Assembly: GCF_037042905.1 (NCBI RefSeq)
Contig: NC_087251.1
Location: 21,268,001-21,332,000, forward strand
Reading direction: 5' to 3'
From: Lytechinus pictus
Lineage: Eukaryota
DNA: 64,000 nucleotides
The notes below the pieces were generated by a model. That model was not told the DNA's origin. It saw only the letters and a program-made list of their open reading frames with translations, and ran no database searches. A program made the translations under genes and the position numbers. Of the stretch, positions 18,646 through 61,158 are shown in pieces (position 1 is the first letter of the stretch; every line of letters starts with the position of its first letter).

Positions 18646-20837
18646 CTACGACGAAGTTCTTGCGACTGCGTCTTCGACGTGGCAAGAAGAAAAGAAAATT
18701 CCCTGTATTAGCGCGACTTGAGACGAGACGGTCGCTGAATTCTCGAGGGCCACAGGAACGCGGTAAAGATTTGTTCAAATCGCGGTTGATGAACATACAA
18801 TACTCATGGATCAAAATGAACCCCTTTCCCTTTCTTATTTTCCCATTCTAATGTTCCTATACATAATCATTTAAGTGGATGCACAACCCTAGACACAATT
18901 TTGTGACTGGGCCCTGGGGTGCTGATGTTGAATAATAATTATGCACTCAATTTTTTTTAAATGCCCCCCCCCCCCCATTAAAATATTTCAATTGCTTCAG
19001 ACATTTTCTTAGCCTATGGCAAACACCAAATTGCTTTCAAAATTGTGCATCTCCAGCTATGGGAAAAGAGCCAGCCCCCCCCCCCCCCCATCTATAACAG
19101 TGGCACAATTACTCAAATTTGAAATTAAAATTATTATTTCTTTTCACAACATGGAGTGAATTCAAGGGAACAAGTCATCTGGTATCCCCGCCCCCTCTCC
19201 TCCATAGCCATCTCTCTTGTTTCTTAGCCCCCCTTAATTAATTTCCATCTCTTATTCTCACCCTGCACCCCCTCATACTGTTGTTTTAGAGCTTACACTT
19301 CAACAATGTAGTGATATTCACAAGACCCAGATTTATCTAGAATTATTACACAAACAAGCCACTTTTTCCCAATTCAAAATTCCAAAAGGGTCAATTAGGA
19401 GATTTCTATTTGGTTTCTAATGGCATAAATCACTTGGCCACTGCAACCATCCTACCTGTGGGAATCTACAGTTAGGACTATGGTATGCCAATGCTGTACA
19501 GAGCACACACTTAAAAAAATCATTAAAATATCAATTTTGTGACCAATATTACTAATTTCCTTACAGTTGCAATTTATTTTTCATTAGTAACTTGGGTATA
19601 ATTTTTGTATTCACCAGAGCACTCAAAAACTTGAATTTTGGGCATATTTTTGTGTACGCCCTCTATTGGTGGAAAGTATGTATGGCAAGAAAATTTTCAT
19701 TTTTCAATCTCTATTTTAAATTAAGAAAAAAATAATTTAAAGAATCAAATTTACTGAAGAACCAAGTTGTATGATGAATAGGTGTAATGGAAACTGTCAG
19801 TGTAAAAAAAAGCATTTGTCCCAAAGAAAAAGAGAGAATAAGCCAAACATTGCCACCCTTATTTTGCCACACATGGAGGTACAACAGAGAACAAGGTTAT
19901 ATCATAACCTTGTTCATTGAATGAGTGGCATAAATGAAATTCTACTATTAAAATAATGTTGGAAGGGGTGCAATTTTTTACTGATGCGAATTTTTCACAA
20001 ATTTAATGGAAAAATCCATCCTATCAAATCAGTTTTAATAAAAGCGTGAAAAAAAAGAAGATATTGTCAAAGAAGTTTCACAAAATAAATTTAAGTTAAT
20101 GAAATGGGATAGCTTAAAAAAATTGACTGTCATTTTGGATTTTCATCAAAATATCTGTTAGTACATGTTTCTATCATTTTGTCTGCTTTAATTAGATAAA
20201 AATTGGTATGAGTGACTTATTACCAATAAAACTATTGAATTTGCCCCTCTTAAACTACTGAACATGACTTTATACAGTATGTGCTATTCTTGATTTGTAT
20301 CAATATACATGTTTATCTTTGTCTGTCTTCAGCTTGGTGGAGGGGGCTGTAACAAGTATACCCCCCCCCCTTCAGTCTCTGTTAGCAAGAATGGGATGAT
20401 CAATGTGATTATCAAAGTAGAAAGCAGTGGCGGATCTAAGGAGGTCAAAGATGGCCAAAGTAAGAAATAAATATACAGAAATATAATTTTTTAGACAGGA
20501 AACAGGAAACTTTTGACTTTTGATTACCTAGGTTCAAGACACTTTCAGAGTAATTTTGAAGATGAGAACCAATGCACTACAATCACAAAAAGAGTGGGTG
20601 TTTCACAAAGATTTATAAGTGACTATAAGTGGAATTGCTCTTGAATTTCCATTTGAATGTGGTATTAACATTAACACACCTCCACATTGGTCAGATCATG
20701 CTTAGAGGGCAAAGGCTAAGTACTGCATATCCACCAATAAGATCACTTGTGAAATAGCATGTGCATGTTGGCACCTAACCATGATGTCAAGTCATACCAG
20801 TAATTAATCCATGTGTTTAGGTCATGTGCATAAGCAA

Positions 20838-20841
20838 TATA

Positions 20842-20903
<62 letters not shown>
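20838..20903. repeat. (TA)n microsatellite
   Basis: Direct reading. Confidence 0.98.
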
Positions 20904-20904
<1 letters not shown>

Positions 20905-20969
20905 TTGTGTGTGTGAAATTATACATGTACAACAGCAGCTTTGGCAACTCTTTTTATTTTAATATTTTT

Positions 20970-21008
20970 GCCTCCGACGAAGATTCTGCTAGGATCGAAA
21001 GCTTAGGC
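20970..21008 (+). ncRNA. Minimal type I hammerhead ribozyme-like motif (Penelope-associated type; CC instead of CU in core)
   Basis: GCCT-CCGACGA-A-GATTCT(GCT)AGGATC-GAAA-GC-TT-AGGC: stem I GCCT/AGGC, 6-bp stem II, GAAA, and palindromic AAGCTT stem III. Confidence 0.6.
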
Positions 21009-21206
21009 CCCTTTTTGACTTTTTAAATATTTTGTGAAAGAAATGGATGAAGAGAACAATGGCAGGCGTAGCTTAAATCAAAGCAATAGCTTTGATCCAG
21101 CGGAGGCATGGCGACTTGTCATTGTTCAAAACCCACCTACACCCAACAAAGGAAAAATCTGTCTTCTGACGGTCAATCGGATCGGGGTCGCCCTAGCCAC
21201 TAACCT

Positions 21207-21278
21207 GTCTCTGTGGTCTAGTGGTTAAGGCACCAGCGTTCAAAGCTGGGGGCCCGGGTTCGATTACTGGCAGAGACA
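21207..21278 (+). tRNA. tRNA-like sequence (Glu-like body) with anticodon TCA; probably a pseudo-tRNA or element-borne copy
   Basis: Perfect acceptor stem GTCTCTG/CAGAGAC, D stem, anticodon stem CCAGC/GCTGG with loop GT-TCA-AA, 4-nt variable loop, TTCGATT T-loop, then T6. Atypical G32 and a G53:A61 mismatch. Confidence 0.7.
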
Positions 21279-21705
21279 TTTTTTCGACATCACCAATTTT
21301 TCCAAAAGGCAGATAGCTCTGGGGAACCTTGATTTAAGCTACTACTATCATTGTTCTATTCATCCATTTTTTTTACAAATATATAAACAAGAATCAAATT
21401 ACAAAGTGCGGTATTACTTATAAATGTACACAACATTTTATTAAATACACAATTTAATAAAATAATACAAAGCAAGGAACTAGATTCCACGCCAAAAGTA
21501 AAGCATTGTCTCATCTGCATGTCACTTTGAGTAAGGATACATGTATCTCAAATACTAAAGCGATGGGTATAATTCTCATAGCTATGGAAAATTGACCCTA
21601 GGTTATATCATGCTTTTATAAAGCGCTTGATGTGTACTCATTCATCAAGTACGCATGATTCTAATCCTGTAGAGAAAAAGTTGTTACAAAGTCCTGAAAT
21701 TTAAA

Positions 21706-22888
21706 ACTAGCACATCAATGATGTGGAGCTCATCCATCATTTCGCAACGAAATTTAACACAATTTTAATTTCAGCCCAGTTGACACTGTAGTGAATTATA
21801 TTGGTGAAATAAATTGAGGATATAGAATTGAAATTGATGAAGAAATGACATAGAAGCATTTTTTGTGATCTATGAATAAATTTCATATAAATTAAGCATA
21901 AATAACTTTCTAGTAAAAAGTTCTTAACTTTGTGTAGAACCTTGGTGAACCTCATGTAGCTCTCAGATGGAACAAAAATAATCAAAATCAATTAACAAAT
22001 AAATGGGTAATTTTTTGGGAGTTTTGAAAATATATGAATAAATTAGCATATTTAATGAATTTCAAAATTCTTTGTTGAAATTTTGTATCACCACCTCGCG
22101 CTATCATATTAAGCAAACAAAATTGAAATTGATCAACAAATGAAGAAGAAAAAAACATTTTTTGTGATTTATGAATAAATTTTGCATAAATTAGCATAAA
22201 TAATTTTCCAGACAAAATTTCAAAATTGTGTGTACAAGTTTGGTGAACCTCATGCAGCTCTACCAGATGGAAGAAAAAAAATCAAAATCTGTCAACAAAT
22301 AAAGAAGAGGCATTTCCTGTGATTTCTGAATAAATTTCGCATAAATTAGCATAAATAATTTTCTACTGTAAATTTCAAAATTCTGTGTAAAAGTATGGTG
22401 AACCGCATGAATTTCTACCAGATGGAAGAAAAAGAAAATCAAAATCGGTCAACAATTAAAGAAGAAAAAGCATTTTATGTGAATTTTTAAAACTATGAAT
22501 AATTTCGCATAAATTAGCATAAAAATTGTTCTAGTCAAAATTTCGAAATTCTGTGTAGAAGTGTGTAGAAGTTTGGTGAACCTCATGAAGCTCTACCAGA
22601 TGGAAGCAAAAAATTCAAAATCGGTCCACAAAGAAGCATTTTTTGTGAATTTTGAAAAATGCGCATAAATTAGCATATTTAATGAATTTCAAAATTCTGT
22701 GTAGAAGTCTTGAATCCCCCACCTAGTGCTATCATATAAAGCAAACAGAATTGAAATCGGACTTGAAATGGCGAAGAAGTAGCATTTTGAAATTATGGAC
22801 GGACGACAGACGACGGATGACAGACGACGGACAACGGACACCACGCCACGGCATCAGCTCATCTTGCCCTTCGGGCGGGATGAGCTAA
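21706..22888. mobile_element. Helentron/pearl-type element, family C
   Basis: Subterminal IR AGCTCATCC/GGATGAGCT, terminal stem-loop, GACG-type microsatellite at 22797-22840, and ~160 bp internal units. Confidence 0.8.
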
Positions 22889-24240
22889 AAATGTGATTAT
22901 ATGGGTATACAAAGAATCCCAAATAATTATGTTGTACAGTATCTTTGTCATAAATATTGAAAGAGTAACATAAAACCAGGCATCTCATAGAAGTCTGAAG
23001 TATAATTCTTGTTTTAGTCCAAAGATAAACCTTGGTTAATTATCAGTGATCACAATTCTTTTTCTTTTCTTTTGTCATAACATGCAAAAATAAATTGCAT
23101 TACAGAAGTTACATTGAAAATATAAAGCTGCTGAAGGTTTCCAGCCCTTAAATACACATGTTGCATAGGTTGTGGTGCTCATGTTTGAGCACTGAGTAAC
23201 CTCTATCATATAACATATCATTTTGCTACATGAAAAATTATGTGTAAGAATTTTTCCAAGCCAAACTACAGTATTTCTGAAGTCTCCAATAGTCCATTCA
23301 AGACCAAATGAAATTTTGTGGTTTGGGCTAATAATTTGGACAAAGAGTCATGAATATAGTATAAAGTATATTAAATGACAGAGAAAAATAGATCATACAA
23401 ATAAACTGAGACTATACCCCATTCATTGGGACCTTCCACTGGATGGTAATTTTTTTTGGGGGGGGATGAAAGTAATCACTAAAATGGTCAAGTTGGCAAT
23501 GCAATGAAACCTTCGAATTACTGTGCCAACATGCAAATTTTTAAATATTAAAGTTGTAAATCCATTCTCCATTTCTCTTTCTTTCGTCACCACCGAATCT
23601 AAAAGAAAATTGTAGCAACAAAAAAGACTTATGCTGCAAATCGAAGAATAAAATATCACAGAAAATAATTAATTGTCAATTCTAAGTAAAATGATTCAGG
23701 CAGAGTGGATTGTATGTTCATAAACATTAATGCTGTAGTCACACCAAAGAAACCGACTCCTAATCACCAACGGTATGGTATTCCCAATAATGCAATAGCT
23801 TTGATCGGTCTGGGGTCGGGTTCGTTGGTGTGACCGAAGCATCAGATGTCTTCCAAGAAAGTCATGCCAAACTCAAGGTTCACTGGAATAAGAAAACTGT
23901 AAAATCACATGCTATTTTTCACAAAGAATCTCAACAGTCAAATTTCAGAATGAAATCATCAAGTGGTCACTCAGAGTATACATTGACCTGTTGTCTACTG
24001 ATGACAAGTGACTCTTGTTGAAGCCTTTGAGAATTAGGATAGCAGTAGTCATAGGGTCAACATGGCAAATACAGGGATAATACACTCATTTCTCTCTCTC
24101 TATCTCTCTCATTGTTTTCAGCTGACATTCTTGTCATCAAATGTTCAAGGAAAGCATCACTGTCCAATGTCCATGTATCTGCATCAACAGGATCAAACTT
24201 GCTTTTCCTTGAATGAAATCACATTCAGCCATCCTCTGAA

Positions 24241-56039: not shown

Positions 56040-59000
56040 GTTTTTATAACGTAATTGATTTCATCTTCAGTTAAGGGCAAAGGTATATGGAAATTTAATA
56101 ACTCACTTCTTAGAGACGACATATCTAAAGAAACAATCAGAAATATTATAAAGAAAGTGAAACTAGAAAATATAAACTATAATGATCAAATGTTATGGGA
56201 TTTATGCAAGATAAAGATCAAATAATATGCAATGAAATACTCAAAGACAATACAGAAGGATAGAAACCAAATATATCATACCTCGCAAAGTAAACTTGAA
56301 ATCCTTTCGAAAGCAAATGATGCTCACCCGAGAGACAATAATCTCACTGAACTTAACGATGTTACTAAGCAGATTGATAAATTAATTGAAGATAAATGTA
56401 AAGGTGCCTTTGTGAGATCCCGTGAAAATTGGATGGAAGAAGGTGAAAAAATCATCAAAATATTTTTTCAAATTGGAAAAAAGGAACGCGATAAAGAAAC
56501 ATCTAGACTTTTTGAAATGGGATAAAGATGTCATTTTTGATGAAGAAGCCATTTTAAAAGAAATCTATGAACACTACCAAAATCTATATTCAAATAAGAA
56601 TAATGTTCTTGTAACAGAAATATATGATTATTTGAATGATGTTGAGTTTACTACCCTGTCGGAAGAAGAAGCTGACCTTTGCGAGGGTTTACTTACAGAA
56701 TCCGAGTGTTACAAAGCATTGAAGTCAATGAAAGGTAACAAGACTCCAGGTAGCGATGGACTATCAGCAGAGTTTTATCAATGCTTTTGGCAAGATATAA
56801 AATATATGGCTATCAATAGTTTGAAAGAAGGTTACAGAAATAATAAGTTGTCAGAATCTCAAAAGCAAGGTATTTTGATATTGTTACATAAAAAAAGGTG
56901 ACAGAGGTTTACTTGACAATTGGCGTCCTATATCACTTCTAAACATCGATTACAAAATTGCAGCCAAAGTCATTTGTTCACGTCTTCAACGTGTTATCGA
57001 TGATATCATTTCTAAGGATCAAACTGGTTATCTAAAATTGCGTTCAGCTTCAGAAAATGTTCGTTTAGTTGAAGATGTAATTGATCTTTGTTCGCACCTA
57101 AATCTTCCAGGTTATTTCATTTTTTTAGATGTCAAAAAAAGCTTTTGATAATGTTAACCATCAATTTTTATTTCAGTTATTACATAAATTAAAATTCAAG
57201 AATTCATTTATTAATTGGATTAAAGTTCTGTATTATTATGCTTCCGGTAGAGTGATTAATAACGGTTGGATGTCACAAAATTTCAAAATAGAACAAGGTG
57301 TAAAACAAGGCTGCCCACTCTCAGCCTTACTGTTTTTATTAATTGCTGATGTTATGGCAAGGAAAATAAAACAAGTGAAATGCCTCTGGCGGTCTCACCT
57401 GCATCACGCGATTCAATATAGCAGCGGTGCTGATTTTGAAAACTTCTATAACTCGCACGAGATGTTCAGTGATACATGTACTTGGTTACTCTTATTTCCA
57501 CGTTTTATGAACTAGACCAATACACTTACAGAGATATGATGGCAATTCAACAAATACCCCCAACGTGGCCAAAGTTCTTTGACCTTACATGACCTTTGAC
57601 CTTGATCATGTGACCTGAAACTCGCACAGGATGTTCAGTGATACTTGATTACTCTTATGTCCAAGTTACAAGAGTCAGATCCATAAACATTCAAAGTAAT
57701 GATGGTAATTCAACAGATACCCCCATTATGGCCAAATTTTATTGACCTTTGACCTTGGTCATGTGACCTAAAATGCGCACAGGATGTTCAGTGATACTTG
57801 ATTACTCTTATGTCCAAGTTTTATGAACTAGACCAACACACTTTCAGAGTTATGATGATAATTCAACAAATACCCCAATTTGGCCAAAGTTCATTGACCC
57901 TAAATGACCTTTGACCTTGATCATGTGACCTGAAACTTGCACAGGATGTTCAGTAATACTTGATTACTATTATGTCTAAGTTTCATGAATCAGATCCATA
58001 AACTTTCAAAGATATGATGGTAATTCAACAGATACCCCCAATTCGGCCAAAGTTCATTGACCCTAAATGACCTTTGACCTTGGTCATGTGAGGTGAAACT
58101 CATGCAGGATGTTCAGTGATACTTGATTAACCTTATGTTCAAGTTACAAGAGTCAGATCCATAAACATTCAAAGTAATGATGGTAATTCAACAGATACCC
58201 CCCAATTCGGCCAAAGTTCATTGACCCTAAATGACCTTTGACCTTGGTCATGTGAGGTGAAACTCATGCAGGATGTTCAGTGATACTTGATTAACCTTAT
58301 GTTCAAGTTACAAGAGTCAGATCCATAAACATTCAAAGTAATGATGGTAATTCAACAGATACCCCCATTATGGCCAAAGTTTATTGACCTTTGACCTTGG
58401 TCATGTGACCTAAAATGCGCACAGGATGTTCAGTGATACTTGATTACTCTTATGTCCAAGTATTATGAACTAGACCAACACACTTTCAAAGTTATGATGA
58501 TAATTCAACAAATACCCCAATTTGGCCAAAGTTCATTGACCCTAAATGACCTTTGACCTTGATCATGTGACCTGAAACTTGCACAGGATGTTTAGTAATA
58601 CTTGATTACTATTATGTCTAAGTTTCATGAATCAGATCCATAAACTTTCAAAGATATGATGGTAATTCAACAGCTACCCCCAATTCGGCCAAAGTTCATT
58701 GACCCTAAATGACCTTTGACCTTGGTCATGTGACGTGAAACTCATGCAGGATGTTCAGTGATACTTGATTAACCTTATGTTCAAGTTACAAGAGTCAGAT
58801 CCATAAACATTCAAAGTAATGATGGTAATTCAACAGATACCCCCATTATGGCCAAAGTTTATTGACCTTTGACCTTGGTCATGTGACCTAAAATGCGCAC
58901 AGGATGTTCAGTGATACTTGATTACTCTTATGTCCAAGTATTATGAACTAGACCAACACACTTTCAAAGTTATGATGATAATTCAACAAATACCCCAATT

Positions 59001-61150
59001 TGGCCAAAGTTCATTGACCCTTAATGACCTTTGACCTTAATCATGTGACCTGAAACTTGCACAGGATGTTTAGTTATACTTGATTACTATTATGTCTAAG
59101 TTTCATGAATCAGATCCATAAACTTTCAAAGATATGATGGTAATTCAACAGATACCCCCATTCGGCCAAAGTTCATTGACCCTAAATGACCTTTGATCTT
59201 GGTCATGTGACGTGAAACTCATGCAGGATGTTTAGTGATACTTGATTAACCTTATGTTCAAGTTTCATGAACTAGGTTCATATATTTTCTAAGTTATGAT
59301 GACATTTCAAAAACTTAACCTTAGGTTAAGATTTTGATGTTGATTCCCCCAACATGGTCTACGTTCATTGACCCTAAATGACCTTTGACCTTGGTCATGT
59401 GACATGAAACTCAGGCAGGATGTTCAGTAATATTATTAACACTTGATTAACCTTATGGCCAAGTTTCATGAACTAGGTCCATATACTTTCTAAGTTATGC
59501 TGTCATTTCAAAAACTTAACCTCAGGTTAAGATTTGGTGTTGACGCCGCCGCCGCCGCCGCCGCCGTCGGAAAAGCGGCGCCTATAGTATCACTCTGCTA
59601 TGCAGGTGAGACAACAAAACGATAATATTTAAGGAATCATTATTCCAGGAGAAAATGGAACCCAGTGTTCAGAAAAAGAAATCAAAATATCACAGCTTGC
59701 TGATGATGCAGTAAGTTTTGTGAGTTTTGTTAATTCCGGTAATATTGCGAAAGAAGATATAAGGCAATTTGGAGAAATTGCAGGCCCTAAACTTAATTTA
59801 ACAAAAACTCATGCAATGTCCATCTTCCCTCAAGATGAAACCTTAAGAGATATACAATGGACAAATGATCTAGTGAAATACCTTGGTATTTTTGTAGGAA
59901 CGGATAAACGTAAAAAAGAAAGAATGAATTGTGATACAAAATTAGTTAAAATTCAATCTATAATGAACATCTGGAAAATGAGAAATTTAACTATATGTGG
60001 CAAAATAGTAATACTTAAATCTTTGATAATATCACAGATTGTTTACCCTGCAACTGTAATACACGTGTCAAACAACCTGGCACGTGAATTAGAGAAAATG
60101 ATGTATACGTTTATTTGGGGCTCGAAAAAAAGAAAAGATAAAACGAAATGTTTGTATTAATTCATTTCATAAAGGAGGATTAGATATGATAGATTTAAAT
60201 TCAAAATTATCTTCATTGAAACTTTCATGGATTTCAAAATATTTAAAATACGATGATCAACCATGGATGTACTTGTTAAAATTTTGGACAGCAAAGATAG
60301 GACCGATGCCTTTGTGTCTCCGTTTCAATTGTTCTAAAAAAGATATGTTAATTTTATGTATGAAAAAGCAAATTCCATCCTTTTATACAGATCTATTATG
60401 CTCTTGGTATGACATACAATTTACTGAATATCACAATATTAGTAGTATAAAACACGAAATGTTATGGTATAACAGTCATATAAAATTTGAAAGAAACCTT
60501 TTATATTTCAACAGATGGTTCGACCACAACATATTTTATGTTCACCAATTATTACGTAATCATGCCTGGAAACCTTCCGAAGAAATATTTGAAATAGTAG
60601 CATGTAAATCACTTTTAGTCGAGTTTGAATATTCAAAGCTAAAAAGATCTGTTCCAGCAGAGTGGACTAACAGATGTGACACCTTATCTTCAAAGCTTCC
60701 AGAAGATCTTTTTGAAATCAGTGGAGGAGATATTGTAAATTTAAAGAACATGAAATCAAAAGATTTTTATGTTTTACTTGTAACCACAAAAAAATCTGAT
60801 CCACACTTTATACAATACTGGCAATCTAAATAAGGATTACCAGTAGACTTTGAATGGCAAAATGTTTTTAATTTCAAACTAAAGTATTTAAAGCAAAACA
60901 AGATTCGACAATACAACTTGAAAATGCTTCACAATTTATTACCCTTTAAATTCAATTTATGTCGATGGAAATTAGCTAATGACACATCTTGTATGTTCTG
61001 TGAAGAAACTTTTGTTCATATTACGTTAGAATGTAATCCTGTTGCCAATTTTTGGATAAAGATAAATAATTCTCTGCAATTTATGTTTAAAATCACAATT
61101 CCTATTAACGAAACGACTGTTAAGGTCTTAAACTGTAAACTCTTGCTATA
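56040..61150 (+). mobile_element. 5'-truncated, decayed L1/Tx1-clade LINE ORF2 (RT plus C-terminal zinc knuckle), split by an insertion
   Basis: Motifs in order: GIWKFNNSLL, KTPGSDGLSAEFY, NWRPISLLNIDYKI, KKAFD, GVKQGCPLS, SQLADD, KYLG, CMFC.ET..H...C. Frameshifts and stops. Confidence 0.93.
57371..59613. mobile_element. Helentron/pearl-type element, family A, expanded copy (~12 units)
   Basis: Family A termini. Removing it restores the LINE reading frame (ARKIK|QNDNI). Confidence 0.88.
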
Positions 61151-61158
61151 GTGTAACT

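Follow-up and report, generated by a model that had tools for sequence, protein, structure and literature searches.

The window analysed here is a 64-kb stretch of the 812-Mb Lytechinus pictus genome. Window positions 20837 to 21385 hold a hammerhead motif, an inverted repeat and a tRNA-shaped gene, together with pieces of two repeat families, referred to as A and B. The features are as follows.

20837 to 20909, no strand: (TA)n tract ending in (TG)n, the target of family B; (TA)n proper occupies 20837 to 20904.
20910 to 20958, minus strand: family B 3' tail, the outer part of an inverted copy (unit positions about 367 to 407).
20959 to 20968, no strand: first copy of an A/T target duplication of about 10 bp, one base unlike the second copy.
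20966 to 21023, plus strand: 5'-truncated 3' tip of the autonomous Penelope-like family A, with 57/57 bases identical to RT/GIY-YIG element ends (loci L073-L076).
20970 to 21008, plus strand: hammerhead motif (minimal, type I) belonging to family A, in single copy here, with a predicted cut after 21004.
21024 to 21033, no strand: second copy of the target duplication.
21022 to 21081, minus strand: inner part of the inverted family B copy (unit positions about 305 to 366), which is the left arm of the inverted repeat.
21077 to 21081, no strand: five bases shared by the two copies where the inversion joins them; locus L195 has this junction too.
21077 to 21385, plus strand: family B unit in forward orientation, truncated at its 5' side (positions 28 to about 358), with a 22-bp internal deletion and a tail-less end.
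21158 to 21206, plus strand: leader predicted to pair with the tRNA as a rod in full-length RNA (prediction made on the young unit of L008).
21207 to 21278, plus strand: 72-nt tRNA-shaped gene with anticodon TCA at 21240 to 21242, G32 and A73; the window copy has a B-box/T-stem change.
21279 to 21284, plus strand: Pol III terminator T6, conserved between families B and C.
21329 to 21385, plus strand: right arm of the inverted repeat, which is the ordinary 3' part of the forward unit.

The three parts reported in the initial annotation are all present. The hammerhead descriptor has a single match in the window, at 20970-21008, while 20 Markov controls give a mean of 0 palindromic-type matches and 0.25 matches of any type per 64 kb. 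The motif is built from a 4-bp stem I, the core C-C-G-A-N-G-A, one extra A, a 6-bp stem II, GAA, and palindromic AGCU. Its core, the extra base after A9, G10.1-C11.1, and the palindromic helix III are the marks of the minimal hammerheads of Penelope-like elements (PLEs), and the Penelope-type origin first proposed for it is borne out. An Rfam scan returns no hammerhead match at the locus; the minimal form falls outside the Rfam models. The monomer folds no better than shuffled sequence (z -0.5), and position N7 is variable among RNA reads. PLE minimal hammerheads as described by Cervera and de la Pena (2014; PMC4209133) likewise have an extra base between 9 and 10.1, G10.1-C11.1, a palindromic 15.2-16.2, a location in the pLTR, and many copies scattered off full elements; measured against that description, the window motif shows no substantive difference, being a solo tip nested in another repeat. 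In the same account, single copies of these hammerheads did not cleave (PMC4209133). Since motifs of this kind require a partner copy, the lone window hammerhead is predicted to lack activity.

The hammerhead comes from family A, an autonomous element represented in the genome by 1,236 exact copies of the motif. A single 909-aa ORF encodes RT together with a GIY-YIG endonuclease at the C terminus (YIDD at 547, GIY-YIG at 824; PF01541), with a DKG motif and a CX2-5CxxC linker ahead of the endonuclease (motif names as used in PMC8557442). Judged by these motifs, family A is probably a Neptune-type PLE. The hammerhead terminates the pLTR and lies 957 bases past the stop codon that closes the 909-aa ORF (L250). 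Among 19 other hammerhead loci, the best-scoring of 561 candidates (40 scored), 10 retain more of the pLTR and 9 are solo tips; target duplications of 10-13 bp are present at 6 of these 9 tips. The proteins found are ordinary PLE ORFs. By eye, the tails of A and B share a short likeness in opposite orientation.

The inverted repeat is likewise real, with arms at 21031-21081 and 21329-21379 that align over 51 nt at 86%, yet it does not delimit an element as was initially supposed. The left arm runs on past the hammerhead to 20910, so that the hammerhead interrupts the arm. The family B copy in the window consists of an inverted, 5'-truncated arm with a tail and a forward arm without one, joined over 5 common bases. 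The inverted repeat is the sequence overlap of these two arms, a by-product of insertion.

The tRNA-shaped gene at 21207-21278 scores 51.6 bits against the Rfam tRNA model, is read by ARAGORN with anticodon TCA, and runs into T6 at 21279-21284. Its proposed union with the hammerhead in one unit fails genome-wide. When 20930-21400 is searched against the genome, 21077-21390 recurs hundreds of times in tandem units of about 410 bp that lack the hammerhead. The hammerhead is absent from 30/30 family B loci selected by tail and from 30/30 selected by tRNA pattern, and 0 of the 19 other hammerhead loci (again the best-scoring of 561 candidates, 40 scored) contain any other part of 20901-21420, the tRNA repeat included. 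The hammerhead-B junction itself has 1 match in the genome, where about 1.3 nestings of a hammerhead in B are expected by chance from 1,236 hammerheads and 2,049 matches to the B anticodon arm. On either side of the hammerhead, RNA reads depart from the window sequence, and reads of the B tail skip it.

That the hammerhead, the inverted repeat, and the tRNA form one non-autonomous element is barely credible. All three parts do lie within 410 bp beside (TA)n, and tRNA-derived repeats with hammerheads are described elsewhere (Sm-alpha; PMC2770079), but the junction is unique, a target duplication of about 10 bp flanks the hammerhead tip, the hammerhead is antisense to the tail that it interrupts, and A and B differ in age. 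Family A likely inserted after B because its tip in the window is 100% identical to its family, whereas the B copy is only 84-88% identical to young B copies. The composite is almost certainly a chance nesting of two separate families, a coincidence to be dropped; its parts occur apart and are adjacent only here, the outcome that the initial annotation had named beforehand as contradicting it. On this reading family B, a 410-bp tRNA repeat, lies head-to-head in the TA tract, and the hammerhead tip of the unrelated family A, about 55 bp long, likely inserted later into the B tail.

Family B is abundant and carries its own signature of mobility. Its unit of about 410 bp is present in about 2,000 units, with exact matches to 1,753 B tails and 2,049 B-type anticodon/T arms. 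Units form head-to-tail arrays with inverted 5'-truncated arms and end at two fixed 3' ends about 50 bp apart (unit positions about 358 and 407-410). Among 30 loci selected by tail, the tail is followed by (TA)n in 21 and by a further unit in 9. Arrays usually comprise 2-5 units; very long, satellite-like arrays with a 406-bp period lie at C2:8866000-8879200 and C28:872000-952000.

The unit has no hammerhead core on either strand and no match to an Rfam ribozyme, which separates it from non-LTR retrozymes, where each unit holds a hammerhead. Nor is it built like a tRNA-SINE, in which a 5' tRNA head is read through into body and tail, since the B tRNA occupies unit positions 181-252 of 410 and is followed by T6. 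Its 5'-truncated copies, which stand in tandem or inverted and stop at two fixed 3' ends, are instead those of a non-autonomous PLE passenger. The inverted repeat and the arrays point to PLE-type insertion because they match the architecture described in PMC8557442 and PMC11167929, in which a comparable insertion pattern occurs and the tail is explained by two internal RT start sites. A non-autonomous Penelope-type architecture in (TA)n, proposed at the outset for the whole composite, thus holds for the tRNA carrier. Nesting, together with family B as a Penelope-type passenger bearing a tRNA cassette, explains the whole locus best and is probably correct.

Several known systems come close to family B. 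As described by Craig et al. (2021; PMC8557442), Naiad, Hydra, and the non-autonomous Chlamys element MRC1 share with B its 5' truncation, partial tandems, inverted 5' copy, one-end tail, (TA)n target, and non-autonomous head-to-tail forms. Family B differs from these elements, as they are described there, in having no ORF, no similarity found to the 3' end of a helper, a tail of about 50 bp rather than the 30-40 reported, and an internal tRNA gene with a terminator. Animal non-LTR retrozymes are described as similarly short, tandem, non-coding PLE passengers (PMC7229834; bioRxiv 10.64898/2026.07.22.740005), and in Schistosoma Sm-alpha a tRNA-derived part is joined to a hammerhead (PMC2770079). 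Unlike retrozymes and Sm-alpha as given in these sources, B has no hammerhead, and its tRNA is central, complete, and then followed by T6. Helenus and Cassandra, as presented by Kojima (2024; PMC10886601), are also non-autonomous, contain an internal tRNA- or 5S-derived Pol III cassette, and inflate tRNA counts, including those of predicted suppressor tRNAs; however, they are LTR elements with a primer-binding site, whereas B has Penelope-type ends and paired changes in its cloverleaf. In the literature searched, mostly at listing level, no description of a Penelope passenger with a complete internal tRNA was found. Family B is a Penelope-type passenger that lacks a hammerhead and carries a tRNA cassette that has been maintained, a variant near MRC1, the retrozymes, and Helenus/Cassandra.

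The B tail was not found on any autonomous PLE among 39 Hydra-type, 30 GIY-YIG, and 14 further loci. Hydra-type families that target (TA)n, with open ORFs of 700-810 aa and hammerhead-like motifs of their own, share tracts with B, and none has its tail. Family B would be copied by a Penelope-type RT/endonuclease, most likely that of a (TA)n-targeting Hydra-type family of this genome. At least five Hydra-type families (L206-L218, L071:1840-3560) have open ORFs, hammerhead-like motifs, (TA)n targets, and tails of about 65 nt with a common short GAGCAC. A second tandem (TA)n repeat of about 410 bp (L142:2260-2850, L150-L169; 610 candidates) is close to B and C in unit length. It shows no similarity to either, no tRNA, and no helper, and was rejected.

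The tRNA cassette is better preserved in young B copies (60.9 Rfam bits) than in the window copy, whose B box and T stem are damaged, with an A at 21266 in place of the base C of its own family and a mismatch closing the T loop. A young B unit has all 21 pairs intact and carries G at position 32. The D and T arms agree with those of host tRNA-Glu, with 48/72 positions matching overall. Folded as a full unit, B is predicted to form a rod (z about -6), with every tRNA stem except the anticodon arm hidden by the leader.

Whether this cloverleaf is maintained can be judged from an older sister, family C (L122-L141; 150 candidates, 20 loci fetched), which has a unit of about 400 bp with the same architecture and a predicted rod (z -5.3). 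The consensus sequences of C and B are 58-75% alike in the flanks and agree at 62/72 tRNA positions. Of the 10/72 that differ, 8 lie in stems, yet no pair is broken and 3 are double changes (2:71, 6:67, 28:42). The simulated chance of all pairs being kept between B and C is 0.0002-0.024, depending on transition bias, in what is a single comparison of two lineages; pair counts come from 4 B and 10 C copies, whose relatedness inflates the shuffle test. Anticodon UCA, the A and B boxes, and T6 are kept between the families, as are five loop bases, which at such divergence is not significant alone. Anticodon TCA is found in 95/98 B contexts (overlapping loci, hence not independent) and in 17/20 C copies. 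By contrast, ordinary SINE heads that share these promoter boxes keep 2-5 of 7 acceptor pairs in 16/16 copies, as counted in fixed register. The cloverleaf itself is maintained, because its stem changes keep pairing while SINE heads lose acceptor pairs. The rod does not explain the two acceptor-stem double changes because the acceptor 5' strand sits in the end loop of the B rod. Patterns excluding B and C yielded only B/C mutants and ordinary SINE heads, and no third sister family. Two metagenome scans for the tRNA gave 0 matches each. Loci L130 and L136 combine B tails with C bodies. L364-L366 hold a repeat, at multi-kb tandem spacing, in which a tRNA-like A/B-box segment precedes a long stretch of T.

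The initial annotation had pointed to the in-frame UGA/Sec codons of Naiad elements, but a link of the B tRNA to Naiad or selenocysteine finds no support. Loop bases 33-38 of the B tRNA do equal those of host tRNA-Sec, and Naiads are described as targeting (TA)n and lacking hammerheads (PMC8557442). Still, a tRNA-Sec or a selenocysteine helper for Naiad is a very improbable identity for the B tRNA, which has 72 nt, no long variable arm, a 7/5 fold, and A73, when serylation needs the long arm and G73. The host tRNA-Sec is a separate gene of 86 nt with 2 copies over the Rfam cut-off. An endonuclease before the RT is seen in 0/30 GIY-YIG loci and 0/13 ORFs; a Naiad RT motif gave 11 matches, and none of the 7 distinct ones translated is an intact RT. 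Both identities were rejected, that of tRNA-Sec for want of a long variable arm, an extended acceptor/T helix, and G73, and that of a Naiad because B has no ORF and an N-terminal GIY-YIG ORF with in-frame UGA and SECIS was not found in the sampled loci. PLE searches scored the best 150 candidates each, and the Naiad negative applies to those. In automatic annotation, family B accounts for about 2,000 false 'tRNA-Sec' calls.

As a maintained tRNA with a stop-reading anticodon, the cassette might instead be what the initial annotation called a UGA decoder. At family level it has the structure of an opal suppressor: UCA in a 7-nt loop, an intact cloverleaf, and Pol III boxes. Under this reading, the B repeat would have reassembled parts of a SINE or of tRNA-Glu into a tRNA with a Trp-type acceptor and UCA, selected across two element lineages; about 2,000 UGA-to-Trp suppressor genes would have spread through an animal genome; and an antisense leader would hide the tRNA in the mobile RNA. 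The free B tRNA would be a working opal suppressor, likely charged with Trp, that reads UGA for a helper element or the host. The persistence of TCA noted above (95/98 overlapping, non-independent B contexts, 17/20 C copies), a purine kept at 37, and the 60.9 Rfam bits of young copies are in keeping with this. All six acceptor-end positions common to B and C (1, 3, 4, 5, 7, 73) equal those of host tRNA-Trp, C matches the tRNA-Trp 5' acceptor strand at 6/7 positions, and among the first 30 of 41 matches to the 3' acceptor signature no host tRNA type other than Trp was called. With a second acceptor pattern, no host tRNA was seen by eye among 29 matches; what these searches cover is bounded by the patterns used. 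A73, G1-C72, C35, and A36 are among the Trp determinants listed in PMC9976931, although C34, where B has U34, is listed as well.

The likeness to tRNA-Trp may be inherited because, over the T arm and 3' acceptor strand of B, a SINE family has 21/23 bases in common with it. G32 has no counterpart in any host tRNA fetched. A UGA-containing reading frame to be served also failed to appear: no Penelope family among the ORFs examined has a fixed in-frame TGA, and the ORFs are open over 700-1,026 aa. TGA-only stops occur in 5/150 Hydra and 7/149 GIY-YIG matches listed, and those checked either belong to decayed copies or are changes of an Arg, Cys, or Trp codon confined to one copy. Keeping about 2,000 suppressor genes active should moreover be costly, and the predicted suppressor tRNAs of Helenus are judged unlikely to be functional in the account of PMC10886601. 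The kept cloverleaf and the Trp-like acceptor thus lend the decoder indirect support, but no target ORF was found, and a working suppressor seems a doubtful role, the least probable of the three considered for the cassette. A trans-acting product confers no advantage on the copy that encodes it. The paired changes between B and C reflect a maintained tRNA shape, unlike that of SINE heads, and make the idea of a stop-codon-reading tRNA from a mobile element directly testable.

Within the preferred explanation, a cis-acting Pol III head is the role we favour, if by a small margin over doubt. B likely keeps the cloverleaf because the tRNA serves it as a head for promotion and processing of its own RNA rather than for decoding. 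RNA starting at the tRNA cassette would lack the leader, so its cloverleaf could fold and be handled as a pre-tRNA. In RNA from downstream units or host read-through, the leader is predicted to mask the cloverleaf within the rod, which would shield the template from RNase P/Z. Pol III terminates at T runs, and a T5 lies 20 bases past the T6 behind the B tRNA; the cis-head model must assume read-through because T6 and then T5 should stop Pol III before the tail. It also leaves the kept UCA and the Trp-like acceptor unexplained. By eye, B-copy 5' ends show no clear excess at the tRNA start. B reads occur in 3 raw RNA-seq runs, and reads of both A and B in 2 of those; both strands are about equally represented, with no preferred starts or ends, in libraries blind to a 72-nt RNA. 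This pattern is as expected of passengers in host transcripts or of an unstranded library.

The tRNA shape could alternatively serve as an RNase P/Z cutting signal that resolves multimer transcripts into monomers and so replaces the hammerhead. The acceptor stem is kept under selection, and no hammerhead core is present in B, C, or E (a further passenger family, below) where scanned; C has one CTGATGA with no fitting GAAA by eye. RNase P and RNase Z need particular substrate features, however, and the acceptor, D, and T stems have a predicted probability of about 0 in the full unit, where the cloverleaf is hidden. No copy missing exactly the tRNA appears in the BLAST maps examined, and the T stem of E is broken. 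A cutting signal is therefore unlikely, though slightly less so than the suppressor.

Family E (L353-L370, e.g. L354:718-2091 and L358:717-2461) is a second passenger with a Pol III cassette. It is non-coding, has a 334-bp unit and at least 291 copies by exact 26-mer, and lies off (TA)n. Its copies form PLE-type tandem and inverted arrays with A and B boxes, T6, and a 7-bp terminal stem, and no hammerhead core is found. The predicted rod (z -5.4) has the same protruding hairpin as that of B, with a variable loop and a broken T stem. This variable loop and broken T stem point to a cassette that acts in cis with no anticodon needed, as the cis-acting Pol III head supposes for B. Family E is unrelated to B, and in this genome hammerhead-free PLE passengers with a Pol III cassette have arisen two or more times, in B/C and in E, offering a test of what replaces the hammerhead. 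The E 3' end (L354) and the B leader region share a 17-base likeness on opposite strands (E 0.002 in a tiny search) that is missing in C.

Two further repeats lie in the window. Adjoining the locus, the repeat at 21460-22890 has internal tandem units of about 160 bp, an ACRG-type microsatellite, a short sub-terminal inverted repeat, and a 3' hairpin, and presumably resembles a Helentron/Pearl-type element. At 56416-61151, on the plus strand, LINE-like ORF2 pieces with RT motifs are spread over several frames.
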